Source: Planctomycetota bacterium (GTDB lineage: Bacteria > Planctomycetota > SZUA-567 > H5-PLA8). Taken from it: 20,521 nucleotides of DNA. The stretch is from positions 1-20,521 of the forward strand of contig JBBRPR010000097.1 of assembly GCA_038227875.1 (NCBI GenBank), written 5' to 3'. Each line of letters begins with the position of its first letter. Within the stretch, counting starts at the first letter, position 1. The position numbers and the translations under genes are program-made. The notes under the pieces are model-generated. The model was not told where the DNA came from, searched no databases, and saw nothing but the letters and a program-made list of their open reading frames with translations. Positions 831 to 15,606 of this stretch are shown in pieces.

Positions 831-2651
831 GTGCAACTCGGCCCCCTACTCTTCTCTGCCAGCGCGTTCTGGCTGGCGATTCCGGTGCTCCTCGCGCTGA
901 TCATCGCGCGATTTTTCCGCACGCGACGCCGCGAAGTCGTCGCCGGCAGCCTCCTGCTCTGGAAACGGTTGGCCGCACAACAACCCAAACTTCCGCCGCG
1001 CCGCGTGATCATCGATGCGTCGCTGCTCCTCCAATTCGCGGCGTTGCTGGCGATCATGGCCGCGCTGGCCGCGCCGTCCTGGTCCGTCGGCGGCACGCAT
1101 GGCCGTGAAGTCCTCCTGGTCGTCGACAACGGTCCGCTCGCCCGAGCGCGCAACGCCGGCGGCACGCCGCTGCTCTCCGATCTCAGGCAAGCCGCGGAAC
1201 TCCGCCTCAAGTCTTTGAAGTCCGACGACCGCGTCTTCCTCGCCCGCAGTTCGCCCACGCCGAAGCTGCTCACACCGGAAGCGCTCTCGCCCGACGCCGC
1301 AAAATCGAAGCTCGCCGAAATCGCCCCCGCGCTCTCCGGCCCGGACGCCGAGGCGCTCTGGCGTTTCTGTGCCGACAAGGCCCACAGCCTGGACGAGTCC
1401 GGCAGTGTGCGGCGCGAAGTGCTTTCTCTGCGAGACGGCCCGCCCAATCTCGGCGTCCAGTGGCGTTGCATCGCTCCTTCTAACTCTGCGTTGAACAACG
1501 TCGCGCTCGTTGGCACCGGCTCCGCGTTTGTCCCGAATTCCGCCGGCGGCGTCACCGAAGTCCTGATCCGCGTAAAGAATTTCGGCGCGCAACCCATCGA
1601 CGGCTCCGTCACACTTATCGGGCTGAAGGACACGAAGCCCGCCGACGCCGCGCACACCCGGACGCTCCACCTGGATGCTCACAGCGACGGCAGCGTCGTT
1701 TTCACGCTCGACGGCCCCGCCAAAGAAGCCCTGCGAGCCCAGTGGGCATCATCGAAACCCGACGTGCTTCCGGAAGACGACGTGATCGCGCTCAGTCCGC
1801 GCGTGGCCAATCCGCCGCGCATCCGGTTCGTGCCCGCCAGCGTCCCGGCGCTCGAGAAGCTCTTCCGCGAAGTCACGCCGCCGGCCGTGATCGTAGCGCC
1901 GACCGACACCGCCGATGTCGACTTGGAAATCCGCACCGGCAACGTGCCCGAAGCGATGCCCGCCAACGCCAAGGCGCTGATGCTGCTCTCTCCAGAGACC
2001 GGCTTCCGCAGCTTTTTCGAAGTGCCTGGCGAACTCAAAAATCCGCAGCCGCAGAAGGACCCGTCCGACGACCTTGTTCCGTTTGTGAAATCGTCGGCCG
2101 ACAGCCTCTTCGCCGTGCCGCGCGCGCGGGAGATCCAGGTCACCGGAGACATGAGCGTGGTCATCAAGGACCGCGTCTCCGGCCGCCCGCTGATCGCGCG
2201 CTTCGCCGACGAACGCGGACATCCGGTCTTCCTCTTTGCCTTCGTCCCCGGACAGGGCCTGCCCGCCGACCGCGCGCTGGAACCAGAACTCGCCGCCGTG
2301 CTGGTCAGCCTCATCGATCGCGCCGCTGGAATCGGGGAACCCTTCGCCTTCACGACCGCCCGCGAACTCGAAGCCAGCCTCACCGAACCGCTGCCGCTGG
2401 CCTGGTCCGCACCCGCCGACGACACCGCGAAGTCCGGCGCCGGCGTGCTCGACGAAAGCACCTCGAATCTGCAGCTCGGCAAGCCCACGGCTGCTCTCTC
2501 CAGCGCCGACGATACGGAAGCCTGGCCGGCCGCGGCGCGATCCGAGGTCTACGATCTGACGCCGTGGTGCATCGTCCTGGCCGTCTGTCTCATGCTGTAT
2601 GAGCAGTGGCGCGAGCGGCCCCGAGCGCATACCGTGAAGCCGTTGGCGTGA
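831..2651 (+). CDS. BatA (N-terminal double-transmembrane) domain protein with degenerate vWA domain and C-terminal TM anchor
   Basis: N-terminus FWLAIPVLLALIIARFFRTRRREVVAGSLLLWKRL...LLLQFAALLAIMAALAAP fits the BatA/aerotolerance N-terminal pattern. vWA first strand EVLLVVDNGPLA; CARDB/Ig-like NNVALV...VRVKNFG-type segment; C-terminal DLTPWCIVLAVCLMLYE anchor. Confidence 0.8.
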   Translation: MQLGPLLFSASAFWLAIPVLLALIIARFFRTRRREVVAGSLLLWKRLAAQQPKLPPRRVIIDASLLLQFAALLAIMAALAAPSWSVGGTHGREVLLVVDNGPLARARNAGGTPLLSDLRQAAELRLKSLKSDDRVFLARSSPTPKLLTPEALSPDAAKSKLAEIAPALSGPDAEALWRFCADKAHSLDESGSVRREVLSLRDGPPNLGVQWRCIAPSNSALNNVALVGTGSAFVPNSAGGVTEVLIRVKNFGAQPIDGSVTLIGLKDTKPADAAHTRTLHLDAHSDGSVVFTLDGPAKEALRAQWASSKPDVLPEDDVIALSPRVANPPRIRFVPASVPALEKLFREVTPPAVIVAPTDTADVDLEIRTGNVPEAMPANAKALMLLSPETGFRSFFEVPGELKNPQPQKDPSDDLVPFVKSSADSLFAVPRAREIQVTGDMSVVIKDRVSGRPLIARFADERGHPVFLFAFVPGQGLPADRALEPELAAVLVSLIDRAAGIGEPFAFTTARELEASLTEPLPLAWSAPADDTAKSGAGVLDESTSNLQLGKPTAALSSADDTEAWPAAARSEVYDLTPWCIVLAVCLMLYEQWRERPRAHTVKPLA

Positions 2652-2695
2652 GCGGCGTCTGTACTTCAATCGTGAATTTCGAAAGGACGGTCAAA

Positions 2696-3277
2696 GTGGG
2701 TTTTCCGCTCAACAGGATTCGCGCGCTCAGCACCGTGGCCCTGGCAATGGTCTTGCTCGTCCTCGCCGTCGGTTGCAAGAAGGGCGAAGAAGCCGACGAC
2801 CACCCGGCTCCGTCTCCCGCTCCTGATGATGGCGGCGGCAAGGAAGCCAAAAGCTCCGGTGGCGGCGGACTCTCGCGCCTGTTCAAAGCCGACACCGTCG
2901 CGACTTACGGCTGGGACGGCCAGAGCTCCAGCATGACGCTCGACATGAACACCAACGAAGCCTACCGCCGCTCAATCTCCGGACTGCGCGCGATGGGTTT
3001 CGTGATCAAGGAAGAAGCATCGAAGAAGGAAGGCGGCAAGTCGCACATTCAAGGCGCGAAGTCCGATCAGACGCAGGTCTCGGTGTGGATTGAAGAGCCG
3101 GCCGAAAAACCCGGCAAGGCGCTGCTCCACGTCAAGGTCGGCGCGCTCGGCGACCGCACCGGAAGCGAACGGGTCTTCGATGAGATTCAGAAAGTCCGCA
3201 CGCGTCCGGCCACCGCGCCCGTCGCGAAGCCTGCTCCAAAAACGGCGCCGCCGCCAGCTAATTCCCAGCAGCCGTAG
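2696..3277 (+). CDS. Putative lipoprotein (DUF3568-like)
   Basis: GTG at 2696 preceded by GAAAGGA (2681-2687); signal peptide with lipobox LAVG-C. Core segment ending LLHVKVGALGDRTGSERVFDEI resembles DUF3568 lipoproteins. The ORF-track start at 2606 overlaps the upstream gene and is unlikely. Confidence 0.7.
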   Translation: MGFPLNRIRALSTVALAMVLLVLAVGCKKGEEADDHPAPSPAPDDGGGKEAKSSGGGGLSRLFKADTVATYGWDGQSSSMTLDMNTNEAYRRSISGLRAMGFVIKEEASKKEGGKSHIQGAKSDQTQVSVWIEEPAEKPGKALLHVKVGALGDRTGSERVFDEIQKVRTRPATAPVAKPAPKTAPPPANSQQP

Positions 3278-5465
3278 CCATTTTGTCGGCCGACGAAATC
3301 TCGTCGCGCTTGGGTCGGGGCGCGCGAATCAGGGCCAGGCCGACGGCAAACACCAGCACCGCCGGCACCATCCATTGCAGCGGCAGGTTGGGCAGCGCTT
3401 CGCCGGGGTTCGGCGCTTCTTCCTTCACGCCCAAAAGTGCCGGCCAGATGAACGTCGACGAGTTGTGCATGAAATGATAGATCACGCCCGGCCAGAGACT
3501 CTTGGCTTCGTACGCCATGTACGCCAGCACCACGCCCAGCAGCATGACGATGGGCTGCCGGTACAGCGGAACGTGAAACGCGCCGAAGATAAAGCCGACC
3601 AGCAGCAGCACGCGCCACTTGGCGGACTTTTGCAGCAACCCCTGCTGCAGGAACCCGCGGAAGAAATGCTCTTCGCACAGCGCCGGTGAAAAACCGATCA
3701 GGAAGATCAGTACGGTGAGGCCCCAGGACGTCGACGACAGTTCATGAATCGGCTTTTCCAATGCTTCCATGCCGCTGCTCGACGTGGGCCACACCCAACT
3801 CTGCCACACCGCCAGCTGCTGCGCGATGAAGAACGACGAAACGCCGAGCAGGATCGCACCAATCACGGCCCGTATCGGCGGCGCGTTCCATTGAAACGTC
3901 TTCTTCAAATCGAGCTTCAGGTACCAGGCAATGAAGATGGGCATTCCCAGGAAAAGCAGATACAGCGGCAGCGCCACGACCAGCACGAAGTTCGGGACCT
4001 TGACGTCGTTGAAGTCGAGCAGCGCTTTCTGCAGCCACAATTGAAAGTAGAAGTTGATCGGAAAGAGCAGCGCCGCCACCAGCATCGCGTCGCCCCACCG
4101 CGGCCGGTCGCTGGGCTTGAAGAACTTGCGGCTCAAGAACAAGCGCACGCTGCCCTGAGCGTTGAAGAGCACCTCTTCGCGCGCAAACACGCGCGCGGCC
4201 AGCGCCACCGCGCCCGCCGCATAAAAGCATGTGCTGAAGAAGACGAAGACCACGTGCTCCGCCGTGGCGTGACGGAGGAAGAGCTCCTTGATCATCAGCG
4301 CGACATTGACCACCGGCGCGAAGAGCAGCGGCCCGTCGAGCTCCACGTCGGGCATCATCACCATGACCATGCCGACGATCGGAATCATGAACACCGGCAT
4401 GCAGTAGATGCCCGCTTCCTTGTGATTGGTCGCGAAGCTCGCCACCGCCAGCAGCAGCGCGGCGAAGAAGAACGTCAGCGGGATCAGCAGCAGCAGCGCC
4501 AGCGGTAGCACCTGCCACGGAATGCCGGCCTGGTTGAGCATCGGTATCGGCATCATCAGAAAACTGCCGCCGCAACTCAGGACGTTCAATCCCGCCGTCG
4601 CGCTGGCGATCGTGGCCACGGCCAGAAACTTTCCGGTGATGATTTCAATCGGGCGAACAGGCGTGACGATCAGCGTCTCCAGCGTGGAGCGTTCTTTCTC
4701 GCCGGCGGTCATGTCGATCGCCGGGTACATCGCGCCGGTGATGATCATGATGATGAACATCATCGGCAGAAACGAGAGCAGTGATCCGCCGACCTTTGCC
4801 GCGTCGGCCACGTTGGTGCGCACAAACGCGAACGGCTGCAGGTCCTTCACGTCCATATTGTGCGCCTTCAGGCGGTTCTTCAGCGCCTGCTTGCTGTACC
4901 GTTCCATCAACGCCTGCACGCGCGACGCCGCATCCACCGAACGATGTTCCGCCGCGTCGATGCGGACATTGACCTCCACCTTCTTATTGGCCTCAACATC
5001 CTCTTCAAAGGTCAGCGGAATATCGACGACCGCCTTCACCTCACCGGTCGCCAGTTTCTTGCCCGCTTCGTCGGCGTCCATTTCCACGAACGTCAGCGGA
5101 ATTGTATGCACTTTCATTGGCGCGGCGTTGGGCACTTCCGGCTTGTTCGCCTCGCGGAGCATCTTGGCCTTCGCGGCCAGCGGATCGCGCGAGTCGCCGA
5201 AGCCCGGGACGTCGTCGAGGTTGTCGCCGGATTTGGCGTCTTCCATCAGATGCTCGAAAAACGGCCGCATCGTCCGGGGCACCGCGACGGTGTAGGTTTC
5301 TTTGAGCATGCGCGTCTGCGTAGCCGTGAGCACTTCCGACATTCCCAGCATCATCAGCGGGTAGATCATCAGCGGCACGATCACCGATGCCAGCACCACG
5401 CGGCGATCACGCAAAGCGTCGCGGAGTTCCTTGATATAGACGGCGCGTACTTTCGGTGGGAGCAT
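3258..5465 (-). CDS. natB: ABC-2/NatB-type permease fused to a CPBP (Abi/CAAX-like) intramembrane glutamic endopeptidase domain
   Basis: N-terminus VYIKELRDALRDRR; NatB motif AIDMTAGEKERSTLETLIVTPV; CPBP motifs EEHFFRG, FGAFH and HFMHN; many TM segments. ATG at 5465 with AGGA upstream. Confidence 0.88.
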   Translation of the reverse strand: MLPPKVRAVYIKELRDALRDRRVVLASVIVPLMIYPLMMLGMSEVLTATQTRMLKETYTVAVPRTMRPFFEHLMEDAKSGDNLDDVPGFGDSRDPLAAKAKMLREANKPEVPNAAPMKVHTIPLTFVEMDADEAGKKLATGEVKAVVDIPLTFEEDVEANKKVEVNVRIDAAEHRSVDAASRVQALMERYSKQALKNRLKAHNMDVKDLQPFAFVRTNVADAAKVGGSLLSFLPMMFIIMIITGAMYPAIDMTAGEKERSTLETLIVTPVRPIEIITGKFLAVATIASATAGLNVLSCGGSFLMMPIPMLNQAGIPWQVLPLALLLLIPLTFFFAALLLAVASFATNHKEAGIYCMPVFMIPIVGMVMVMMPDVELDGPLLFAPVVNVALMIKELFLRHATAEHVVFVFFSTCFYAAGAVALAARVFAREEVLFNAQGSVRLFLSRKFFKPSDRPRWGDAMLVAALLFPINFYFQLWLQKALLDFNDVKVPNFVLVVALPLYLLFLGMPIFIAWYLKLDLKKTFQWNAPPIRAVIGAILLGVSSFFIAQQLAVWQSWVWPTSSSGMEALEKPIHELSSTSWGLTVLIFLIGFSPALCEEHFFRGFLQQGLLQKSAKWRVLLLVGFIFGAFHVPLYRQPIVMLLGVVLAYMAYEAKSLWPGVIYHFMHNSSTFIWPALLGVKEEAPNPGEALPNLPLQWMVPAVLVFAVGLALIRAPRPKRDEISSADKMATAAGN

Positions 5466-5492
5466 CAATTCTTCCTGGTGATTCGAACTCGA

Positions 5493-6407
5493 CTATTGAA
5501 ACCGTCCCTGAATGTCATCCGGCATGGCTACTGCCCGCGCCTGTCCGGAATCATACGCGGAAACCTCCGGCGGCGGCGCGCCTTCCACGCGCGCCACCAT
5601 CTCAAGGAAGATGTCGCTGAGCCGTTCCTTGCCGGTATTGACGCGCAGTTGCGCCAGCGTGCCTTCCGCCAGCAGCACGCCCTTATGCATCATGCCGAAG
5701 CGGTGGCAGATCGCTTCGACTTCATCGAGATGATGCGTCGAGAGAATGATGGTGTGCCCGCGCTTGCTGGCCTGCTTGACGAAATCGAGAATCAGCCGGT
5801 TGGTCAGCACGTCCAGGCCGTTGGTCGGCTCGTCGAGAATCAGAATCTGCGGGTGGCCGATCAGTGTGCGCGCGATCTGCACGCGCTGGCGCTCGCCGGT
5901 CGACATGCCTTCGCAGCGCCGGTCCGCAAAGGCCGTCAGCCCCAGCATCGTGATCAGCTCGTTGATCTGGCCTTCCAACGCATCGCGCGGAATGCCCCGC
6001 AGTTCGCCGAAGTAGCGCAGCGTTTCCCGCGGCGTCAGCCGCACGTACAGCCCAGTGTTGGCGGTCAGAAACCCCGTACGTTCCTTCAAGGCCATCGGAT
6101 CGGCCGCGCCGCTGATGCCATCGACGATCACGTCGCCGCCGGAGGGCTGCATCAATCCCGCGAGAATGCGCAACGTGGTGGTCTTCCCCGCTCCGTTGGG
6201 CCCCAGCAGGCCGTAGATTTCCCCGCGCGCAACATGAAAGTCGATGCGGTCCACCGCGACATGTTCCTGTCCGGTGTGCGTGTGGAATATTTTTCGGAGG
6301 GCCTGTACGTGGATGATGGGTTCGATCGCGGGGGGAAGCAGGGCTGCGTCTGGAGCGACCGGGATGGGGACCGGAACGGGCTCATTCGCGTTGATCGGAT
6401 CCGCCAT
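5493..6407 (-). CDS. natA: ABC transporter ATP-binding protein (NatA-like)
   Basis: Walker A GPNGAGKT; signature variant MSTGERQR typical of NatA; Walker B ILILDEPT; H-loop STH. ATG at 6407 with GGAG SD. Immediately upstream of the NatB-like permease. Confidence 0.88.
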   Translation of the reverse strand: MADPINANEPVPVPIPVAPDAALLPPAIEPIIHVQALRKIFHTHTGQEHVAVDRIDFHVARGEIYGLLGPNGAGKTTTLRILAGLMQPSGGDVIVDGISGAADPMALKERTGFLTANTGLYVRLTPRETLRYFGELRGIPRDALEGQINELITMLGLTAFADRRCEGMSTGERQRVQIARTLIGHPQILILDEPTNGLDVLTNRLILDFVKQASKRGHTIILSTHHLDEVEAICHRFGMMHKGVLLAEGTLAQLRVNTGKERLSDIFLEMVARVEGAPPPEVSAYDSGQARAVAMPDDIQGRFQ

Positions 6408-6495
6408 CGCTTGCTCCCGCTCGACCACTCTCACTCAATCCGCAGTCGAAAGAGATAATATCCGCACAGTGTGAAATTCCTATCAGTAATGTGAG

Positions 6496-7032
6496 TCATT
6501 GCGCAGACAAGGCGCTAATTAGAGCCTGCACTCCGATCTTTATAGCGTTGAGCACCGCCGCGTCCGCGATCTCGCCCGACTTCGTCATCTCGCGCCGGGC
6601 ACGCGGGGCCACCACGGTCGCGTCCGCCAGCACCCGCGCCTCCATTGTGCTCAGGATTTCCACCAGCGCCGCCTGCGCGAATTGACCGCCGCTGCTGGAC
6701 GCATTGATGATCAGCACCGGCTTCTTTGAAAACTCGCCGCTCGACACAATCCAATCCAGCGCGTTCTTGAACGCGCCGGGCAGTCCGTGCACGTACTCCG
6801 GAGTCGAGACGACGAACCCGTCCGCGGAGGCCAGCAACGCACGAAACTCGGCGACGGCCGGCGGCGGCGCAAGCTCCGGCGCGTCGAGATCCGGATTGAA
6901 GTGCGGCAACCCGCCCAGACCCGTGTAGTGAAGCACCTCCACGCCATCCGGCGCGACGGCCCCCACCGCACGCAGCAGCGCTCCGTTCGACGACGCAGCG
7001 CGGAGGCTTCCCGAAAGTGTGACGATCTTCAT
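6496..7032 (-). CDS. NADPH-dependent FMN reductase (flavodoxin-like, SsuE/ChrR family)
   Basis: MKIVTLSGSLRAASSN phosphate loop; LPHFNPDLD; TPEYVHGLPGAFKNALDW; KPV. ATG at 7032 lies 16 nt past the kinase stop. Confidence 0.92.
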   Translation of the reverse strand: MKIVTLSGSLRAASSNGALLRAVGAVAPDGVEVLHYTGLGGLPHFNPDLDAPELAPPPAVAEFRALLASADGFVVSTPEYVHGLPGAFKNALDWIVSSGEFSKKPVLIINASSSGGQFAQAALVEILSTMEARVLADATVVAPRARREMTKSGEIADAAVLNAIKIGVQALISALSAQ

Positions 7033-7048
7033 CACGCACCCGCAGACC

Positions 7049-10000
7049 TTATGCCTGCCCATCCACCATACGTTTGACTGCCTGACTCAGTTCGATGGGT
7101 TCAATGGGCTTCGACAGATGCAGCTGAAAGCCTGCCGCGAGGGCTTCGGACTTATCGGAATCTCCCGCGAAGGCCGTCAGCGCAATGGCCGGAATCGCCC
7201 GGATCCCCGGCTCGGAGGCGCGGACTTTCCGCATAAACGTGAGTCCGTCGCCATCGGGCAGCGCAATATCGCTGACGATCAGGTCCGGCCTGGCCGTCTC
7301 CAAATGCGTCAGCGCCTCGGCGGTGGTCCGCGCCGGGAACACCGAACAGCCGCACTTCACCAGCATCGCCACGATCAATTCCCGCGTGTCCGACTCGTCC
7401 TCGACCACCAGCACTTTCATTCCGGAGAGATCCGGCATCACGCGCGTGGCCGCTTCCGCCCCGTCCACGACCGCCCGGCCCTCCGCCAGCAGCGGCAGCG
7501 TGACCGTGAACGTGGCGCCCTTGCCGAGGCCGTCGCTGTGCGCCCGGACCGAACCGCCGTGCAACTCAACCAGCGACCGCACCAGCGCCAGGCCCAGTCC
7601 CAGTCCGCCGTGATTGCGCGTGGTCGAACTGTCCGCCTGCCGGAAACGCTCAAACAGCTGCGACAGAAATTCCGGCTTGATCCCCTGCCCCGTGTCAGAG
7701 ATGCGCAGTTCGGCCGCCGCGTTCACCACGCTCAGCGAAACGGCCACATTGCCGCCTTTGGGCGTGAACTTGATCGCGTTGATCAGCAGGTTCCAGACGA
7801 TCTGCTGCAAGCGGTCCGCGTCGCCGGAGACCGGACACGGGTCGTCGGTCAGGTGGACGTCGATGGCGATGTTGCGCGCCGTCGCCGTGGGTTGCGCGAT
7901 CTCCAGCGCCAGGCGGATCGCCTGCGCCAATTCCATCGGCCGCAGATTCAACCGCATCTTCCCGGCCACAATGCGCGAGATATCCAGCAGGTCCTCGATC
8001 AAATGGACTTGCACTTTGACGTTGCGCTCGATGGTGTCGATGGCGTGCGCGACGGTTTTTTCGTCCAGCCCACCCATGCGGATCATGCGCACCCAGCCGA
8101 AGATGGATGTCAGCGGCGTGCGCAGTTCGTGCGACAGCGTCATCAGGAATTCGTCCTTGGAACGGTTGGCGTGTTCGGCGATCACGCGCGCCGCCTGAGC
8201 CTCCCGCTGCTTGGATGCCAGTTGCCGCGCCAGCGACTCGAGGCTCTGCGCAGATGAGGTCAGTTCCGTCTGCAGAATGTCCCGGGTGCGCTTGATCGAC
8301 GACAAATTCCCGACACGCGCACGCAGTTCTTCCAGCACGATCGGCTTCATCATGTAATCGTGAGCGCCCTGTTGCAGCAGCCGCACCCGCAGGTCGTCGT
8401 CGGCCTTGGCCGTGAGCATGATCACCGGCGTGTTGCGCATCTCCGGAATGGACTGCAGTTCCTTCAGCATCTCCTCGCCGGTCTTGATCGGCATCATCAG
8501 GTCGCTGATGATCACGTCCGGATGCAGCGCCACGGCCTTGGCCACACCCTCCGCGCCATCAAAGGCCGTTTCGACCTGGAAGTCCCGCGTCAGGCTGGAG
8601 GCAATGAAGTGGCTCATCTCGGTGTTGTCTTCGACTACCAGCACCAGGGGCGTGGACGTACGATTGGCCGCGGTGAGTTCCGCGGGCTTGGTCTCCGGGA
8701 TTTTCCGCGGCCGCAGTTCGGCCAGCGTCGCCACAGCAATCCGCTCGGTCTGCGCCTGCGTCTCCGGTCCGGCCTGCAGGGCCACTTCCGCCCCTTCCGG
8801 CGCGCGCGCGGGAAGGGTGATCGAAAACGTTGCGCCGCCGCCGGGCGTCTCCGTCACGCCCACCTTGCCGCGGTGGAGTTGCACGAACTCCTTGACGATC
8901 GACAGGCCCAGCCCCGTACCGCCCGTGCGGCGCGTCTGTCCGCCGTCGATCTGGCGGAAGCGCTCGAAAATCTCGGCGCGGTATTTCTCGGGAACGCCCG
9001 GCCCGTTATCCTGCACCACCATCGACACGTCGCCGCCTGAGTTGCTGAGCACGCAACGCACCGTGCCCGTGGCGGGAGCGAACTTGAAGGCATTGGACAG
9101 GAGGTTAAACAGCGCGCGCTGAATCTTCTCTGGATCGACCTGCGCCCGCAGTTGCGGCGGCGCTTCCACGCTCAGCGAAATCGACCGTTCGCGGGCGAGC
9201 GAATCGAAGTAGCCAGCCGTCAGCCGGAACAACTGCGCCAGATCGACATCGCCATAATTGAGCGCCAGACGGCGCGCGTCGAGTTTCGACAGATCGAGCA
9301 GGTCGTTGACGTGCTTGAGCAGCAACTGCGCGTTGCGCTCGATCGTCTCCAGACTGTGGCGCTGCTCGGCGCCGATCGTCCCATTGGCGAGCAACTGTTG
9401 CGCGGGTCCGAGAATCAAGGTCAACGGCGTGCGCAGTTCGTGGCTGACGTTCGAGAAAAAGTCGGTCTTGATCTGATCCAGTTCCTGGGACTTTTCGTGC
9501 GCCAACTTCAGTTGCCCGTGCGTCGCTTCCAGTTCCTTGTGTGCGGCTTCCAACTGCGAGTGCGTGGCTTCCAGCACCAGCCGGCGTTCCTCGGCCAGTT
9601 CGACGCCTTTGATCACGCGCATCGCTTGCGGCAGCAGCGGGTAGAGCCACACCGCGGTGGTCACCGAGGCGACAGCCGTCACCACTTTGATCACGCCGGC
9701 CAGCCAGTATTGTGGTTCCCAGATCGTCCAGACTTCCATGAAATGCGTGCAGCCGCAGGCGCCGATGAAAATTCCGAAGGCGATGAACGCGAGGTGAAAC
9801 GGCACGCGCGCTTTTTGGACGAGGTAAACGAGGGTCATGGAAATCGACGCGTAGGCAATGCCGATCAGAAAATCCGAAGTCACGTGCAGCCAGATCAGCC
9901 GCGCATCATCCTGGTAACACGTTCGATGCGGCAGCAGGGACAATCCGGCATTGGGAAGGTACGTCCGCGCTCCCGCCCACACCAGAAACGCCACGACCAA

Positions 10001-10063
10001 GCCACTCGTTACCAGACCCGCCCTGCCGCCAGGACTGGCCCAGGTTTCTTTGATTGCACGCAT
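7049..10063 (-). CDS. Double hybrid sensor histidine kinase with N-terminal ETR1-like ethylene-binding TM domain (EBD-HisKA-HATPase-REC-HisKA-HATPase-REC)
   Basis: SDFLIGIAYASIS...FIGACGCTH...IKVVTAVAS matches the ETR1 TM1-3 pattern. Two H-boxes (NVSHELRTPL, TLSHELRTPL); two ATPase boxes (NLLSNAFKF..DNGPG..GTGLGL; NLLINAIKF..DTGQG..GLGLGL); two receivers (VEDN..SDLMMP..KP; VEDE..SDIALP..KP). Confidence 0.93.
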   Translation of the reverse strand: MRAIKETWASPGGRAGLVTSGLVVAFLVWAGARTYLPNAGLSLLPHRTCYQDDARLIWLHVTSDFLIGIAYASISMTLVYLVQKARVPFHLAFIAFGIFIGACGCTHFMEVWTIWEPQYWLAGVIKVVTAVASVTTAVWLYPLLPQAMRVIKGVELAEERRLVLEATHSQLEAAHKELEATHGQLKLAHEKSQELDQIKTDFFSNVSHELRTPLTLILGPAQQLLANGTIGAEQRHSLETIERNAQLLLKHVNDLLDLSKLDARRLALNYGDVDLAQLFRLTAGYFDSLARERSISLSVEAPPQLRAQVDPEKIQRALFNLLSNAFKFAPATGTVRCVLSNSGGDVSMVVQDNGPGVPEKYRAEIFERFRQIDGGQTRRTGGTGLGLSIVKEFVQLHRGKVGVTETPGGGATFSITLPARAPEGAEVALQAGPETQAQTERIAVATLAELRPRKIPETKPAELTAANRTSTPLVLVVEDNTEMSHFIASSLTRDFQVETAFDGAEGVAKAVALHPDVIISDLMMPIKTGEEMLKELQSIPEMRNTPVIMLTAKADDDLRVRLLQQGAHDYMMKPIVLEELRARVGNLSSIKRTRDILQTELTSSAQSLESLARQLASKQREAQAARVIAEHANRSKDEFLMTLSHELRTPLTSIFGWVRMIRMGGLDEKTVAHAIDTIERNVKVQVHLIEDLLDISRIVAGKMRLNLRPMELAQAIRLALEIAQPTATARNIAIDVHLTDDPCPVSGDADRLQQIVWNLLINAIKFTPKGGNVAVSLSVVNAAAELRISDTGQGIKPEFLSQLFERFRQADSSTTRNHGGLGLGLALVRSLVELHGGSVRAHSDGLGKGATFTVTLPLLAEGRAVVDGAEAATRVMPDLSGMKVLVVEDESDTRELIVAMLVKCGCSVFPARTTAEALTHLETARPDLIVSDIALPDGDGLTFMRKVRASEPGIRAIPAIALTAFAGDSDKSEALAAGFQLHLSKPIEPIELSQAVKRMVDGQA

Positions 10064-10142: not shown

Positions 10143-11009
10143 TCAGCACACGGCCGAACGGGCCTGCAGCCCGAAATAACATATCTCTTCGCGGCTCATC
10201 GGGCGGTGGCATTTGAAGAGCGCTTCGGCGACGGCGCGTTCTTCGGACTTTGAATACGGGTAGCGGTGGATGCGCCGGCCTTCCATATCGCGCCCGTGGG
10301 TGCTGTCGGATTTCTTCAAAATCGATTGGATCTCCGGGAGATTCAGCCGCAGCAGCAGCGCCGGCGCGCCCTGCACCCGCGCGCACGGACGCTCGGGACC
10401 CACTCGGGTGAAGCGCAGCATGCGCTGATAATAGCCTTCGTGACGCGGATTGACTTCCACCACCAGATCGCTGCAGCCCCGCACATCCCGCGCGAAGATA
10501 TAGCATTGATTGAACAGCTGCAGCAGGACCTCCCGCGATGCGGTGCAGCTCTCGTCGATCGCCAGGCGCGTCACCTCGGCGATGCGGCAGCCGGAATCGC
10601 GCAGCGACTGCACTTCCCCGGAATAGATCTCGTCGCACGGCAGGCCGCATTCGGAATCGAAGACCAGCGAGAGCGTCGCCCAGTCGTTTCCGGATGGATC
10701 TTGAGCCAGCAGCGTCAGCGTGTGCGGCTGGGCATCGTAAGGCGCGACGCAGAGATTCAAACCGTCATCGCTCACGTACCCCGCACGCTGATAGACGCGA
10801 TGGGCCAGCGCGTAAGCGCGCCGCCGCAACCCCAGCGTCGAAGCCACACGGATCTTGAACGGTGCCGGCGTTTGTGTTTGAGGAAGCGGGATGGCTTGGA
10901 GATCCGCCTGAACGACCGCGCGCAACGCCTGCGACACCGCCGACGAGCGGCGGCGGTGCGGAGCGATGGTTTCGAGTCCCAGGATGTGGCAATCTTCAGG
11001 CGAGATCAT
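10143..11009 (-). CDS. FeeM-like N-acyl amino acid synthase (GNAT/AHL-synthase fold)
   Basis: FKIRVA...AYALAHRVYQRAGY; TLSLVFDSECGLPCDEIY; RIAEVTRLAID; DLVVEVNPRHEGYYQRMLRF; APALLLRL is the characteristic FeeM/NAS pattern. ATG at 11009 with AAGGAG SD, overlapping the glycosyltransferase stop. Confidence 0.8.
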   Translation of the reverse strand: MISPEDCHILGLETIAPHRRRSSAVSQALRAVVQADLQAIPLPQTQTPAPFKIRVASTLGLRRRAYALAHRVYQRAGYVSDDGLNLCVAPYDAQPHTLTLLAQDPSGNDWATLSLVFDSECGLPCDEIYSGEVQSLRDSGCRIAEVTRLAIDESCTASREVLLQLFNQCYIFARDVRGCSDLVVEVNPRHEGYYQRMLRFTRVGPERPCARVQGAPALLLRLNLPEIQSILKKSDSTHGRDMEGRRIHRYPYSKSEERAVAEALFKCHRPMSREEICYFGLQARSAVC

Positions 11010-12324
11010 GGCGTTCTCCTTGGATGTGCGCGGCGGCCAGCTCCGGCTGCGTTTCAACGGTGAACGGTGCGAATCGGTTCAAGAATTGAATCCACTGCGC
11101 GCAGGTGTCGTGCCGCGCAATCGCGCGCGCCACCTCTGCCGCAGAGACCCGGTACACGTGGTGCCGCAGCGTTCCGATCGCGGCGCTGAGTGCACGAACG
11201 GTGGCGGCGCGCGGTTCGATGCTCAGGCCTGCGCCGCGTCCAACCACTGCGGCGGCGACGAGACCCTGATCGGGATTTCCCGGCAGGCACAGCAGCGGCA
11301 CGCCGGCCGCCAGGCTCTGATAGACCGTCCCGCTTCCGCCGTGACAGACCGTGAACGCCGCGCCTTCGAGAATCTCTTCCGGATCGAAGAACGGCGCGGC
11401 GATGCTGCGCGGCCCCAGGTCCGGCAACTGGCGGTAGAGCGTCTGCGCTTGCGTCGCGTTGACTCCGGACAGCGCGATGTCGTAGTCCGCGTTGAGCAGC
11501 GCGCGCAACACATTCGGCAGCACGCGCGCGTGGCCGGAACTGCCCATCGTCACGTATGCCAGCGGCCGGTTCCGCCCCAGTTCCGGCGCGGAGAGTTTGC
11601 GCACGTGGCGCGGCTTCCAGATCACCGGTCCGACAAAAAAGGAGCGCGCGTTTTCACGCTCCGCCTGCGCGGGATAGAGCTCCGGCAGATCCATGTAGGC
11701 GCAACTATCCCCGGCGGTGTAGTGCTGGCGGAAGTCGTTGAGTGGCCGCATTCCAAAGCGGCGGCGCACCGCATTGAGCGGCTGGGCGAACGTGCGGAAG
11801 GCCAGCGGCCGGATCAACGCGAAGAGTCCGTCGCGAACTTCCGTCGGAAGCACCCGGAAGAGTCCGACGTCCGGCGCGCCGAATCGACACGGCGCGTCTG
11901 GACTCCAGTGAGCGTTGTTCAACGCGACCAGCGGAATGCCCGCGCGCTGCGCCGAGATCGCCAGCGAGAGGCGGAAGTCGCCGACGATGACATCGGGACG
12001 CAGCATGGCGAAGAGTTCCAACTCGGCGCGCACATACGTTTCGAGCTCCGCGGCCGTGTAGAAGAATTGGCCCGCGTTGAGTCGCGCGTAGAACAAACCC
12101 GCGTCAATCGTCAGCAGTTCGTGCGGCACAAATCCTTCTGCTCGAGCCACGGAGGCAAAGGCGCTGCCGCACGCGAAATGGACGTCGTAGCCCGCGTCGC
12201 GCGTCCAGCGCGCCAGGGTCGCCGGCCGGCCGATGTGCGCCAGCGACACGGCCTCGCCCACGAAGAGAATCCGCGGGCTGGAGTGTTCGAGAACCGAACC
12301 GAAGGTGTGAGCGAAATGAGGCAT
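10996..12324 (-). CDS. GT1-family (GT-B) glycosyltransferase resembling mycobacterial PGL/p-HBAD rhamnosyltransferase Rv2962c
   Basis: RILFVGEAVSLAHIGRP; PDVIVGDFRLSLAISAQRAGIP...NAHWSP; PLNAVRRRFG; VGPVIW; YVTMGSSG; UDPGT-like CHGGSGTVYQSLAAGVPLLCLPGNPDQ. ATG at 12324 with TAAGGAG SD. Confidence 0.88.
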   Translation of the reverse strand: MPHFAHTFGSVLEHSSPRILFVGEAVSLAHIGRPATLARWTRDAGYDVHFACGSAFASVARAEGFVPHELLTIDAGLFYARLNAGQFFYTAAELETYVRAELELFAMLRPDVIVGDFRLSLAISAQRAGIPLVALNNAHWSPDAPCRFGAPDVGLFRVLPTEVRDGLFALIRPLAFRTFAQPLNAVRRRFGMRPLNDFRQHYTAGDSCAYMDLPELYPAQAERENARSFFVGPVIWKPRHVRKLSAPELGRNRPLAYVTMGSSGHARVLPNVLRALLNADYDIALSGVNATQAQTLYRQLPDLGPRSIAAPFFDPEEILEGAAFTVCHGGSGTVYQSLAAGVPLLCLPGNPDQGLVAAAVVGRGAGLSIEPRAATVRALSAAIGTLRHHVYRVSAAEVARAIARHDTCAQWIQFLNRFAPFTVETQPELAAAHIQGERHDLA

Positions 12325-12445
12325 CGGTGCGCTCCTTACACGTGTGGCGAGACAAAAGCGGACCGCGCCGCGAGCAACGCAGCCGCTGAAACTCCGCTTC
12401 ACATCCATTTCGCTTTACGAGCCGCGTGGCGCGCTCGTTGTCGGA

Positions 12446-13906
12446 CTACTCATTGAATTGAATCGTGACGGGCTTGCCGGGCACCGTGGATTGCAGCTCC
12501 GGCAGATCGTGAGTTCCGCTGCGTTTCTCCGGCGCGATCTTCTCGACGGCTTCGACGAACGCCCGGGTATCGGGCAGGTCCTCGGGACGGATGGACTCCA
12601 CTTTCAAATTGTCGATCCGGCAGGCACCGCGAACGAGCAGCGCCGGCCGCGCATTGAGCCGCGGGATTCCGTAGAAAATGCTCGCACGCTGGCCGTTGAT
12701 CCAGGTATCGATCGTGCGGCCACTGATGTAGGTTTTGACGGGAAACCAGGCGCCCACGTCGCTGGTCAGCACATTGCCCGCGTTGTGAAACACGCTGTAA
12801 TTCTGAACGTTGCTCCACGCGGCCGACAGCAAATGTTCGCCGGGCGGCAAGGGTTGGCAATCGTACGTGAGAAGGATTGGCAGCGGACCGGCGAACTCAG
12901 TCTCGGCGCCGAACGCAGCGCCGTGCGCAACGGTTTCCATACAACCCGAACCGTCCGCCCCGCCATTCGGCACGAAATGCCAGGAACCAAACGTGACTTT
13001 GAAATCGCGGGACTGCTCTGCCGAATTGAAGTTCCACGTGCGAACCGCTGGAGTGGGCGAAGTCATCGCCACTGCCGGTGCCGGGCTCACGGCCGGAATC
13101 GCCTGAACCGCTGCCGGCTTGCTGAACGCCGACCAACTGAGGGTTCCGACCACCGCAAGAACCGCCACGCCGCCCGCCAGGCTCAGCCACATTTTCCCAG
13201 CCGCTTTGCCACGAGGCGTTCCGACGCGGCGCGACGCTGTGACTGCGTCCAGCTTTTCAAGCTGGCCAAGCGTCATCGACTTCAAGCTCGCGGGAACGCC
13301 GGCGTCCGTCGCCAGCGCCCGGCCGATGTGCTCGGCCCCGATCAGCGGAATCGCAGCCGCGAATCCGGCCTTGGCCAGGTTGCCGCGCAGATTTTCCAGC
13401 GCCTTGTTGATCCGGAATGAGATCGTCTGCTGCGGAAGCTCCAGTTCCGCGCTGATCTGGCGCTGTGAAAGCCCCGCGCCGAAATGGAGCGAGATCAGCT
13501 GGCGTTCCAGCTCCGGCAACTCCCGCAGCACCGCCCACAACGCCGCGAGAAGTTCCGCCTGTTCCGTGCTTTCTGAGGAAGGCGCCGTGGCGCGTTGTTC
13601 GCGTTGCAAACCGGCCTCCTTCTGGCGTTGTTCCCGCCATTTGGTTTTCAGCAATCGAATCCCTTCGCGTGCCACGATGCTCAAGATCCATGCGCGCGCG
13701 TTATCGGTTTTGAACAGTTTCGCCGACTTCCACACCCGCAACATGCCTTCCTGCACGGCCTCATCGGCGATGCTGTGATTTCCGGTGATGCAGAGCGCCA
13801 GGTTGAACGAGACAGTCAGATATCGGTCGTAGAGCTCCGAAAACGCGTCGCGGTCGCCGCGCTGGGCAATCTCCGTCAGTAATTCCGCATCCGCCCGTTC
13901 GCTCAT
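12446..13906 (-). CDS. ECF sigma-70 factor with C-terminal TM helix and extracytoplasmic beta-rich domain
   Basis: Region 2: DAELLTEIAQRGDRDAFSELYDRY...ADEAVQEGMLRVW. Region 4: LPELERQLISLHFGAGLSQRQISAELELPQQTISFRINKALENLR. TM MWLSLAGGVAVLAVVGTLSW, Pro/Ala linker, then a ~200-aa beta-rich domain. ATG at 13906. Confidence 0.9.
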   Translation of the reverse strand: MSERADAELLTEIAQRGDRDAFSELYDRYLTVSFNLALCITGNHSIADEAVQEGMLRVWKSAKLFKTDNARAWILSIVAREGIRLLKTKWREQRQKEAGLQREQRATAPSSESTEQAELLAALWAVLRELPELERQLISLHFGAGLSQRQISAELELPQQTISFRINKALENLRGNLAKAGFAAAIPLIGAEHIGRALATDAGVPASLKSMTLGQLEKLDAVTASRRVGTPRGKAAGKMWLSLAGGVAVLAVVGTLSWSAFSKPAAVQAIPAVSPAPAVAMTSPTPAVRTWNFNSAEQSRDFKVTFGSWHFVPNGGADGSGCMETVAHGAAFGAETEFAGPLPILLTYDCQPLPPGEHLLSAAWSNVQNYSVFHNAGNVLTSDVGAWFPVKTYISGRTIDTWINGQRASIFYGIPRLNARPALLVRGACRIDNLKVESIRPEDLPDTRAFVEAVEKIAPEKRSGTHDLPELQSTVPGKPVTIQFNE

Positions 13907-14102
13907 CGTCGCTTCCAAGAGGCCCACACTGGCCTCGTGAGACTAGCAGGTCAAAGCCCCACGTCTGCCCAGTTTCACACCCAAGAAACCCAGTCGGATC
14001 GAGTGACCAACGAAAAGTGAGAATTCTGAACTGACTCCCAATCCAGAGCATACTTCCGACCGGAATTTTGCCCCGCCTGACTTAAAATCGATATATGCAC
14101 AG

Positions 14103-14121: not shown

Positions 14122-14196
14122 ATAGGGGGAACGTTTTAAAACCTATTGGTACGGAGAATGCGCAGGTATAAAAAGGTATTACGAAAGTGGGCTCTG

Positions 14197-15606
14197 ATGC
14201 TTCGCACAATCGTACTTGTCGACGATGAAGAATCCATTCTGGCTATCGAACGGGATGCTCTGGCTGAAATTGGCATTGAGGCAGAATGCTATCCCAATCC
14301 GATCCTCGCCTGGGAGCGGATCCAGCGCGGCGATGTGGCGTTGGTGGTGACCGATTGGAACATGCCGGAGATGACCGGCATGGAACTGCTCTTCAAAACC
14401 CGCGCGCTTCGACATCCGCCTTATGTGATTGTGGTCACCGCACACGGCACCATTCCCCGCGCGGTCCAGGCCATGAATCAAGGCGCGTTCAGCTTCTTTG
14501 AAAAGCCGTTCGATATTCACACGTACCAGGAACTGGTTCGTGATTCCCTGGACCATTTTCAGCGTTCCGGAGCAATGCCGTGCCGGGATTCCGCTTCGAG
14601 TATTCCGGAGAAGAAAAAAGATTTCGCGGCCGATCCCATTGCGCATTCGGAACTGCTGCGTCAAACCCTGGTAGGCGCTGAAGCCGCGGCGGGAACCGAT
14701 AGCTCCGTATTGCTGCTCGGCGAATCCGGTTCGGGCAAGGAAATGGTGGCGGACTACATTCATCGCAACAGCCGACGCGCGGACAAGCCGTTCATCAAGA
14801 TCAACTGCGGCGCGCTGCCCGAACATTTGATGGAGTCGGAACTCTTCGGGCACGAAAAGGGAGCGTTCACCGGTGCCATCCGCAAGCACATCGGCCGTTT
14901 TGAATTGGCCGCCGGCGGCACGCTCTTTCTGGATGAGATCGGCGATCTGCTGCCGGCACTCCAAGTCAAGTTGCTGCGCGTGCTGCAGGAGCGGAAGATC
15001 GAGCGCATTGGCGGCAGCGCGCCGATCCCCGTCGATTTCCGGCTGATTTGCGCCACGCATTGCGACTTGCGCGCCGGTGTCGCGGACCGCACGTTCCGCG
15101 AGGATCTCTTCTATCGGATCAACGTCGTTCCGCTGCGGATTCCCGCGCTGCGCGAACGGCCGGAAGACATCGAGCCGCTGGCCAAACACTTTTTCCAACT
15201 CCTGCGCAAAAATCTGCCGAGCGGCCCGGAAGACATCGGTGACGGCGCATTGAAGACGCTCAACAGCTATTCCTGGCCTGGAAACGTGCGGCAGCTGCGC
15301 AACGCCATCGAGTACGCGCTGGTCTTCGCCAAAGGGCAGTTCGTTCAGCCGGGAGATTTGCCGGACGAAGTCCGTACCAATTCCCCGCTGGTGGTCATGC
15401 CGACTCAACTTCCACAGGCGAATGTGAGCGTCAGCACCGGCAGCGAAGGATTGAAGCAAACGATCCTCGAGAGCGAATCGAAAGTGCTTCAGGAAACTTT
15501 GGCGCGGCTGCATTGGCGTATGACGGCGGTGGCGCAGGAATTGAAGATCAGCCGCTCGACTCTCTATACCCGACTGCAGGTGCACGGTATTAAACGTCCC
15601 ACTTAG
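14197..15606 (+). CDS. Sigma-54-dependent response regulator (NtrC/AtoC family; REC-AAA+-Fis HTH)
   Basis: REC LVDDE..TDWNMP..EKP; Walker A GESGSGKE; ESELFGHEKGAFTGA; Walker B LFLDEIG; FREDLFYRINV; WPGNVRQL; C-terminal HTH ISRSTLY. Confidence 0.95.
   Translation: MLRTIVLVDDEESILAIERDALAEIGIEAECYPNPILAWERIQRGDVALVVTDWNMPEMTGMELLFKTRALRHPPYVIVVTAHGTIPRAVQAMNQGAFSFFEKPFDIHTYQELVRDSLDHFQRSGAMPCRDSASSIPEKKKDFAADPIAHSELLRQTLVGAEAAAGTDSSVLLLGESGSGKEMVADYIHRNSRRADKPFIKINCGALPEHLMESELFGHEKGAFTGAIRKHIGRFELAAGGTLFLDEIGDLLPALQVKLLRVLQERKIERIGGSAPIPVDFRLICATHCDLRAGVADRTFREDLFYRINVVPLRIPALRERPEDIEPLAKHFFQLLRKNLPSGPEDIGDGALKTLNSYSWPGNVRQLRNAIEYALVFAKGQFVQPGDLPDEVRTNSPLVVMPTQLPQANVSVSTGSEGLKQTILESESKVLQETLARLHWRMTAVAQELKISRSTLYTRLQVHGIKRPT

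Follow-up and report, generated by a model that had tools for sequence, protein, structure and literature searches.

FeeM/NasY-type N-acyl amino acid synthases (NAS) are known from several bacterial pathways, and we consider here a gene for one of them that overlaps the gene of a GT1-family glycosyltransferase (GT) on a planctomycete contig of 20,521 nucleotides. This contig (C97), hereafter the window, belongs to a 9.3-Mb genome in 176 contigs (G000). The stieleriacine producers are of the same phylum, and their synthases are of the same enzyme family as judged from Pfam and the solved FeeM; Stieleria carries three to four NAS copies per genome (PMC12479983). The window genome is unlike Stieleria in having 19 copies, most with a dedicated sigma gene, and in the coupling of the window copy to a GT1. 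The text of that study contains the terms "glycosyl" and "sigma" zero times each.

NAS also acts within a trio of enzymes. Together with a ThiF-type and a nitroreductase-type protein, it makes acyl-oxazolones in M. tuberculosis (TyzABC; PMC10404671), and N-acyl dehydrotyrosines of Stieleria, Massilia and Thalassotalea have been proposed to come from the same trio (PMC12479983). This trio, which is that of OxzAB in Pseudoalteromonas rubra and of the thalassotalic and kyonggic acid pathways, is found at three loci of G000 (L036, L041 and L046), and Oxalobacteraceae-type loci put the GT clade of the window with FeeM and ThiF and/or nitroreductase genes. In the window itself, Pfam finds neither a ThiF-type nor a nitroreductase-type gene, and in the literature passages compared, a GT is not reported as part of these pathways.

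The nearest described product is hyellamide, reported in 2025 from Hyella patelloides, a phenol-O-(acetyl)xylosylated, decarboxylated enamide derived from N-myristoyl-tyrosine (PMC11959600). Its hye cluster is proposed, with none of the enzymes tested in that study; the acyltransferase HyeC is of SGNH/GDSL type, and a FeeG-like decarboxylating oxidase is central. According to its authors, the antibacterial activity that plain N-acyl tyrosines have is absent from the modified compound. Hyellamide is a natural lipid derived from an N-acyl tyrosine with a sugar on the phenol, and therefore the class of product predicted below exists; an earlier note on this DNA, which knew of no described pathway of this kind, is superseded on that point. 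HyeC is unlike the synthase of the window in not being a FeeM. The hye cluster pairs its GT with a hexapeptide-type sugar acetyltransferase, as do three loci described below (L138, L140 and L145). The window shares only the GT with it, and Pfam finds no SGNH, FeeG-like or hexapeptide gene there.

Two further systems are useful for comparison. The mycobacterial GTs of phenolic glycolipid (PGL) and p-hydroxybenzoic acid derivative (p-HBAD) biosynthesis, Rv2962c and Rv2958c, are also GT1 enzymes and act on a phenolic lipid; Rv2962c is one of three GT genes of the locus for dimycocerosates (DIM) and PGL (PMC3594219). Fused sigma factors of the IutY (ECF243) and SCO4117 (ECF52) types, which are activated by regulated proteolysis in the cases studied (PMC8999054), resemble the product of the sigma-family gene that stands ahead of our pair. 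Full-text literature searches, judged from their listings and the papers cited here, turned up no description of a FeeM–GT1 pathway, and a literature search for a link between extracytoplasmic function (ECF) sigma factors and FeeM/NAS found no report beyond a passing co-mention.

The gene pair and its recurrence in other genomes

The GT and NAS genes are translationally coupled. Read on the minus strand, the 3' end of the GT open reading frame (ORF) is ...GGAGAACGCC ATGATCTCGCCTGA, of which the 14 bases ATGATCTCGCCTGA are common to both ORFs; the NAS begins with the ATG at 11009, and the TGA stop of the GT ends at 10996. A Shine–Dalgarno-like AAGGAG stands ahead of each gene, 7 nt before the GT ATG at 12324 and 6 nt before that of the NAS. 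The exact overlap, the two ribosome-binding sites and both family assignments agree with the earlier note, the Pfam scores of the two proteins being above their cut-offs. The GT frame is open upstream as far as an ATG at 12408, which would give 470 aa, but we prefer the start at 12324 because both the ribosome-binding site and the alignment of homologs favor it. The features of the window are collected in Table 1.

Table 1. Features of the window, with the sigma-headed operon first.
Feature	Position	Strand	Basis or remark
Sigma-family gene heading the cassette	12446..13927	(-)	Pfam Sigma70_r2/r4; family HMM 500.7
GT1-family (GT-B) glycosyltransferase, 442 aa, P0001	10996..12324	(-)	Pfam, solved relatives, alignments
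FeeM/NasY-type NAS, 288 aa, P0002	10143..11009	(-)	Pfam PF21926, PDB 2g0b
14-bp overlap of GT stop and NAS start	10996..11009	(-)	direct sequence reading
Terminator-like hairpin between sigma gene and GT (weak; possible attenuator)	12361..12384	(-)	
Hybrid histidine kinase, 1004 aa, ETR1_N-like membrane domain	7049..10063	(-)	Pfam
FMN reductase	6496-7062		14-bp overlap with histidine kinase gene
ABC ATPase	5493-6434	(-)	Pfam
ABC-2 permease fused to CAAX/Rce1-like intramembrane protease domain	3258-5468	(-)	Pfam
NtrC-type sigma-54 activator, divergent from sigma gene	14146..15606	(+)	Pfam
606-aa ORF	831-2651	(+)	
Next ORF	2606-3277		

The GT has the features of its family. Among the Pfam families for the C-terminal nucleotide-sugar-binding domain, it matches EryCIII-like_C at 42.1 bits (cut-off 31.7), UDPGT at 29.5 (cut-off 19.5) and Glyco_tran_28_C at 29.2 (cut-off 22), and the nearest solved structures are those of YjiC, CalG1 and GtfD-type enzymes. 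In GT1 enzymes an N-terminal His and a mid-domain Asp form a general-base dyad, and HGG.GT...D/E-Q is the donor motif. Residues H30, D116, G330 and D352 are invariant in both alignments (33 sequences); in the donor block HGGSGT...DQ, H328 and Q353 are nearly invariant in alignment A2; Q336, which is not part of the D/E-Q pair, is likewise invariant. The protein falls under the cut-off of every NCBIfam subfamily scanned, the best match being to the macrolide GT subfamily TIGR01426 (MGT; 56.4 bits vs. a cut-off of 260), and a search of the ESM Atlas returned generic GT1 clusters only.

The motifs quoted in the earlier note (RILFVGEAVSLAH..RP, GDFRLSL and NAHWSP) are present in the translation and conserved across the GT clade, whose closest members include P0003 at 64% identity. 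That note took them for those of Rv2962c, which rhamnosylates a phenol. The evidence for the likeness is indirect: one homolog at 35% identity (P0114) is named "PGL/p-HBAD biosynthesis glycosyltransferase" at its source, and a protein of Mycobacterium uberis has 34% identity, but the M. uberis neighborhood, which was checked for PGL context, is not recognizably a PGL locus. The comparison is with these nearest mycobacterial or so-named proteins, at about 34–35% identity, rather than with Rv2962c directly, and the context of the window gene is entirely different from that of the mycobacterial GTs.

The synthase is a clear FeeM. It covers positions 2–158 of the 158 of Pfam PF21926 with 154.5 bits (cut-off 27), and its residues 62–229 align with 18–184 of the solved FeeM (2g0b_A, E 2.3e-10). 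All of the residues that are invariant in a family alignment of 20 sequences, D118, P188, H190, Y194 and L198, are kept. An NCBIfam scan (E<=0.01) gave only NF011425, a 989-aa model that is matched through the C-terminal extension at 50.6 bits against 1337; it gave no match to TIGR03694, which we take to be the PEP-CTERM/exosortase-associated NAS model. The FeeM paralogs share an N-terminal motif outside the Pfam domain, R-R-x-S-x-V-S-Q-x-L-R-x-I (about residues 18–30 of P0002; alignment A4), and an extension of about 60 aa past its C-terminal end (about 224–288 in P0002). A "short" subtype without the extension is seen at L046b, L048, L049, L050 and L052.

The pairing of GT with FeeM is a recurrent link, although not a universal one. 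The earlier note had set its absence from other genomes as a result that would count against it, and we find GT and FeeM genes adjacent or fused in several unrelated lineages. A metagenome scan with the single GT protein found no relative, but a scan with the GT alignment did. In species-representative genomes, the GT-alignment scan gave 80 loci, at 15 of which a FeeM-like ORF, recognized by a hidden Markov model (HMM) built from 16 FeeM paralogs of G000, lies within 10 kb; in metagenomes, FeeM is within 6 kb at 21 of 80 loci. In the metagenomes, GT is followed side by side by FeeM at L133, L136, L138 and L139, the order is reversed with a 4-bp overlap at L132, and L140 and L145 are fusions by Pfam. 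Eight GT homologs of at least 48% identity have usable flanks: two are fused to FeeM, one is adjacent to it, three have it within 5 kb with a radical-S-adenosylmethionine (SAM) gene or a second sigma gene in between, and two have none (L131 and G004:C112).

A relative of the same class (G021) has GT and FeeM in one open frame at three places, on contigs C76, C16 and C155, with ORFs of 862 aa (L014), 730 aa with an open 3' end (L032) and 709 aa (L215). Both Pfam families are carried by 5 of 118 GT homologs (E<=1e-10), and P0120 is a further single GT–FeeM protein. With the L145 fusion as the query, the best 150 representatives include six that align over the full length or over both domains (P0123–P0126, P0128 and P0120). 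Altogether the fusions form at least six clusters at 50% identity, and the order is always GT N-terminal and FeeM C-terminal, without any other domain. FeeM is also known in fusion with FAD_binding_4 (P0121) and with ThiF (P0122), so that all three kinds of neighbor have fusion support. A word-indexed search for longer FeeM relatives found at least three proteins, a result that is not usable as a count.

It is also clear that the link was made, or kept, more than once. In a quick maximum-likelihood tree of 59 FeeM domains, those linked to a GT fall into at least four separate, well-supported clades; the loci were baited with GT or FeeM, so the spread over clades is informative and the proportions are not. 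In Massilia/Oxalobacteraceae and related metagenome loci, the GT is clustered with FeeM, ThiF and/or a nitroreductase-family gene, and the GT clade is thereby connected with the established chemistry of N-acyl (dehydro)tyrosines and oxazolones (PMC10404671, PMC12479983). The Massilia-type clusters also hold a PEP-CTERM protein, a short-chain dehydrogenase/reductase (SDR) and a glucose–methanol–choline (GMC) oxidoreductase.

Several other genes accompany these loci. Radical-SAM genes often lie between GT and FeeM, and a SPASM-like protein is encoded upstream in L014. An acyltransferase of the 2-oxoacid-dehydrogenase type (CAT-like) adjoins GT or GT–FeeM genes at L014, L032, L050, L052, L133 and L210; in L210, it comes after a sigma gene, some 4.5 kb away from the GT. 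Sigma-54 activators of 746–848 aa flank GT(–FeeM) loci in G021, in G028 and in a low-GC organism of one metagenome. The loci of that metagenome (L133, L136, L137, L138, L140 and L145; GC 34–36%) each have a divergent activator of 746–788 aa, the N-terminal 400 or so residues of which are without a family assignment, and their tailoring genes vary among GMC oxidoreductase, SDR, methyltransferases, hexapeptide acyltransferase, AMP-ligase and pyridoxal phosphate (PLP) decarboxylase.

Sigma-headed cassettes

The pair supplies the enzymes of a sigma-headed cassette, of which the genome has about 20 variants, and is not the free-standing two-gene pathway for which the earlier note had taken it as a candidate. 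The sigma-family gene lies 121 bp upstream of the GT. In its product, ECF regions 2 and 4 are combined with a single transmembrane helix (about residues 246–264; hydropathy peak 1.84), a linker rich in Pro and Ala, and an outer domain that is beta-rich and lectin-like. In each of the 16 paralogs tested, a single strongly hydrophobic segment aligns with the helix. An AlphaFold model (AF2; mean predicted local distance difference test score 68, from a 15-row alignment) has the sigma helices, then a disordered or membrane stretch, then the beta-rich domain. Foldseek matches the first part of the model to the ECF sigma factors SigK, SigW and CnrH, and the last part to galectin-like (galectin/ConA-like), calreticulin-lectin and sialidase/galactocerebrosidase lectin domains. 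The outer domains of the family have a mean identity of only 18%.

This is the architecture of IutY and SCO4117, where a single polypeptide joins sigma regions 2 and 4 to an outer domain of carbohydrate-binding type by way of one transmembrane helix and a proline-rich linker. The zinc-finger anti-sigma motif is H-x3-C-x2-C. The family is unlike IutY/ECF52 in lacking it, most paralogs having at most "GH.CPP" after region 4 and the window copy not even that, and in being amplified 21-fold here and about 65-fold in a sister genus (G004), tied to FeeM.

Sigma-family proteins of 480–525 aa, with sigma-70 regions 2 and 4 in the first 200 residues, precede most of the FeeM genes. An HMM built from 16 G000 proteins finds 20 full-length members and a truncated one, 21 in all; the members score above 330 (the truncated one 181), as against less than 225 for about 113 other sigma-like matches. 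Sixteen of the 19 FeeM genes share their strand with a member that is no more than 1.4 kb away, where about 0.2 of 19 would be expected by chance (estimated from 21 genes in 9.3 Mb). Conversely, 18 of the 21 members lie within 2.3 kb of a FeeM. At C2:44710-48103, two sigma-family genes stand back to back, in divergent orientation, upstream of one pair of FeeM and FAD oxidase.

The tailoring genes differ among the cassettes. The other 18 FeeM genes are in 17 regions, for which genes were called with a simple caller based on GC at third codon positions (GC3), and 103 neighbors were scanned against Pfam. ThiF is found in L035, L036, L041, L043, L046 (twice) and L049, followed in L036, L041 and L046 by a nitroreductase-family gene. 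In L033, L034, L037, L038 and L039, an FAD_binding_4 oxidase comes directly after FeeM (about 560 aa in four of the five). A SAM methyltransferase occurs in L042 and L049, a small membrane protein in L045 and L048, and MacB/FtsX/HlyD exporter genes in L038, L041, L043 and L046. In the window, the tailoring gene is the GT.

Although FeeM is present 19 times in the genome, the GT is present only twice, each time after a sigma-family gene. The second GT copy is on a contig of 3,990 bp (C156), where it comes immediately behind a truncated sigma-family gene and is followed by the N-terminal part of a B12-binding radical-SAM gene. The two halves of that gene are at contig ends (C156, 1-1289; C83, about 32000-32769), and at the end of C83 the C-terminal part (DUF4070) is followed by FeeM and an FAD oxidase. 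The contig ends do not overlap, but judging from the split gene they are probably one locus, with the order sigma, GT paralog, B12-radical-SAM, FeeM and FAD oxidase.

We also considered whether the cassettes arose by simple duplication as units. For 14 sigma paralogs and their partner FeeMs, the similarities do not track each other (Mantel r −0.20, −0.17 and −0.08 for the full sigma protein, its N-terminal and its C-terminal part, the observed value being reached in 1812, 1715 and 1329 of 2000 permutations, respectively), and therefore the cassettes do not appear to be simple unit duplications, with the reservation that the alignments are very divergent and the evidence is weak.

The sigma–FeeM link extends to all seven FeeM-bearing genomes of the taxonomic family searched. 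With the sigma and FeeM HMMs built from G000 paralogs and genes called in the fetched loci with the simple caller, a sigma-family gene stands beside 16 of 19 FeeM genes in G000, 1 of 1 in G001, 3 of 4 in G002, 1 of 1 in G006 and 2 of 2 in G010; in G004 it is 16 of 24 (within 1.5 kb on the same strand, one being a partial sigma match), and in G012 1 of 3, with another 2 kb off on the other strand. In G021 and G028, of another family in the same class, no full-length member was found. G004 has about 65 full-length members, and each of its five GT genes comes after one at a distance of no more than 1.9 kb, which in three cases is within about 100 bp. The G004 sigma genes are often three or four in tandem (e.g., C183:104184-109990, C11:129387-134083 and C112:30485-40926), and some precede a 2-oxoacid_dh-type acyltransferase or GT2 genes rather than FeeM. 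At L212 (G004:C125), genes for a LolA-like protein and an MMPL transporter come after a sigma-like gene and the GT.

What the pair may make

We consider it reasonably probable that the NAS makes an N-acyl amino acid, which then receives a sugar from the GT either directly or as a derivative, with a dedicated sigma factor in control and perhaps with export by the downstream ATP-binding cassette (ABC) system. From the family assignments, the NAS would condense a fatty acyl thioester, either acyl-acyl carrier protein (acyl-ACP) or acyl-coenzyme A (acyl-CoA), with an amino acid, and the GT would move a sugar from a nucleoside diphosphate (NDP) sugar to a hydroxyl of the product or its derivative. 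If the amino acid were tyrosine, a guess based only on its being the commonest case in the family, the glycosylated hydroxyl would be the phenol. The result would be a glycosylated lipoamino acid, which is probably exported. The data show the identities of the genes, their coupling, the recurrent GT–FeeM link with its fusions and the sigma–FeeM linkage; the order of reaction, the acceptor, the sugar, export and control by the sigma factor are what we infer. The ABC ATPase and permease genes (3258..6434, on the same strand as the pair) are possibly the exporter; other FeeM cassettes of the genome carry MacB/FtsX/HlyD exporters. Every cassette has its own membrane-anchored ECF-type sigma factor at its head and a different tailoring chemistry.

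Several observations weigh against this proposal. Neither the acceptor, the donor nor the site of attachment can be read from the sequence. The nearest paralogs of the window FeeM (55–62% identity) pair with an FAD oxidase and not with a GT, and therefore the pairing in the window is itself young. In the wider GT family, FeeM-linked members are a minority, and in G004 FeeM is within 5 kb of just one GT gene in five; the remaining four come after a sigma gene and before, for instance, a CDP-alcohol phosphatidyltransferase in one case and a LolA-like protein with MMPL in another. The acceptors of the GT clade may therefore include other lipids, and there is room for broader specificity or for separate functions that are merely co-regulated. 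In the latter case, GT and NAS would share no substrate, and the sigma factor would switch on both to remodel the envelope, with the GT glycosylating some other lipid. The four G004 sigma–GT units without a nearby FeeM speak for this, as does the wider GT family, most of which is not near FeeM, yet the repeated gene fusions and the start/stop overlap are hard to explain without a common pathway, and we regard it as rather unlikely.

If there is a common pathway, its order could still differ from the one proposed. RhlB of rhamnolipid synthesis glycosylates a 3-hydroxyacyl chain, and the GT might likewise act on the acyl part, or on an amine or amino acid that FeeM acylates later; the sugar would in that case be elsewhere than on the amino-acid side chain. 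In several related clusters, GT and FeeM are separated or flanked by genes of the radical-SAM, AMP-binding, GMC-oxidoreductase and SDR kinds, implying intermediates there other than a plain N-acyl amino acid, and the sequence does not fix the acceptor. On the other hand, the window has no such extra enzyme, the fusions keep one order and admit no other domain, and in hyellamide, the sole compound of the class known to be described, the sugar is on the phenol. Such an order seems to us improbable, at about the level of separate functions. The sugar might, alternatively, be a temporary cap that inactivates a bioactive N-acyl amino acid inside the producer, as macrolide GTs do with their substrates. 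The best NCBIfam match being the macrolide subfamily would accord with that, far under its cut-off though it is (56 bits vs. 260), as would the lack of antibacterial activity reported for hyellamide by its authors (PMC11959600). This differs from the proposed glycosylation in purpose alone, the chemistry being the same, and no glycosidase or matching export or reactivation gene is seen by Pfam in the window, and we doubt it strongly.

A glycosylating NAS pathway would add a new step to the chemistry of these lipids, of which the known tailoring is desaturation/cyclization, methylation and decarboxylation. The repeated adjacency or fusion of one GT1 clade to the synthase suggests that glycosylated lipoamino acids are a widespread and almost unexplored class of product, for which the natural fusions offer simple one-gene constructs. 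In this planctomycete family, almost all NAS genes come with a membrane-anchored sigma factor of their own, and those in other lineages with a sigma-54 activator of their own; the link provides a handle on the abundance of ECF sigma factors in planctomycetes and on the purpose of the lipids, and makes synthase-plus-sensor signaling pairs outside LuxI/LuxR testable. A more speculative idea, which we think quite unlikely as it stands, is that each sigma–FeeM cassette is a private lipid-signal circuit, in which a distinct exported lipoamino acid (here glycosylated) would be sensed by the lectin-like outer domain of the sigma factor, and the sigma factor freed by intramembrane proteolysis. If so, there would be about 20 orthogonal autoinducer channels per cell (with some 65 sigma genes in the sister genus), like LuxI/LuxR pairs in function but built from FeeM and a membrane-tethered sigma factor, and sigma-54 activators would replace the sigma factor in other lineages.

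Promoter scans and other genes of the window

The scans for control sites gave little. Between 9800 and 14300, there are no sigma-70 promoter sites, and terminator-like sites are not above chance (6 vs. 4.5 ± 2.1 in shuffles). The sigma-54 consensus has three matches in the window as against 6.4 expected, and none of the three is near the operon. Upstream of 20 sigma genes, an ECF-type promoter dyad (a 5-mer and a 4-mer separated by a spacer of 15–18 nt) is found at best in 3 of 20, which is equal to shuffles and gives no common promoter.

The hybrid histidine kinase gene is 79 bp downstream of the NAS, and its product combines two HisKA/HATPase cores with two receiver domains. The other FeeM loci of the genome do not have this gene. 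Among the remaining ORFs, that of 606 aa has a strong coding signal (GC3 0.82) and no Pfam match, and the next one matches DUF3568 only.

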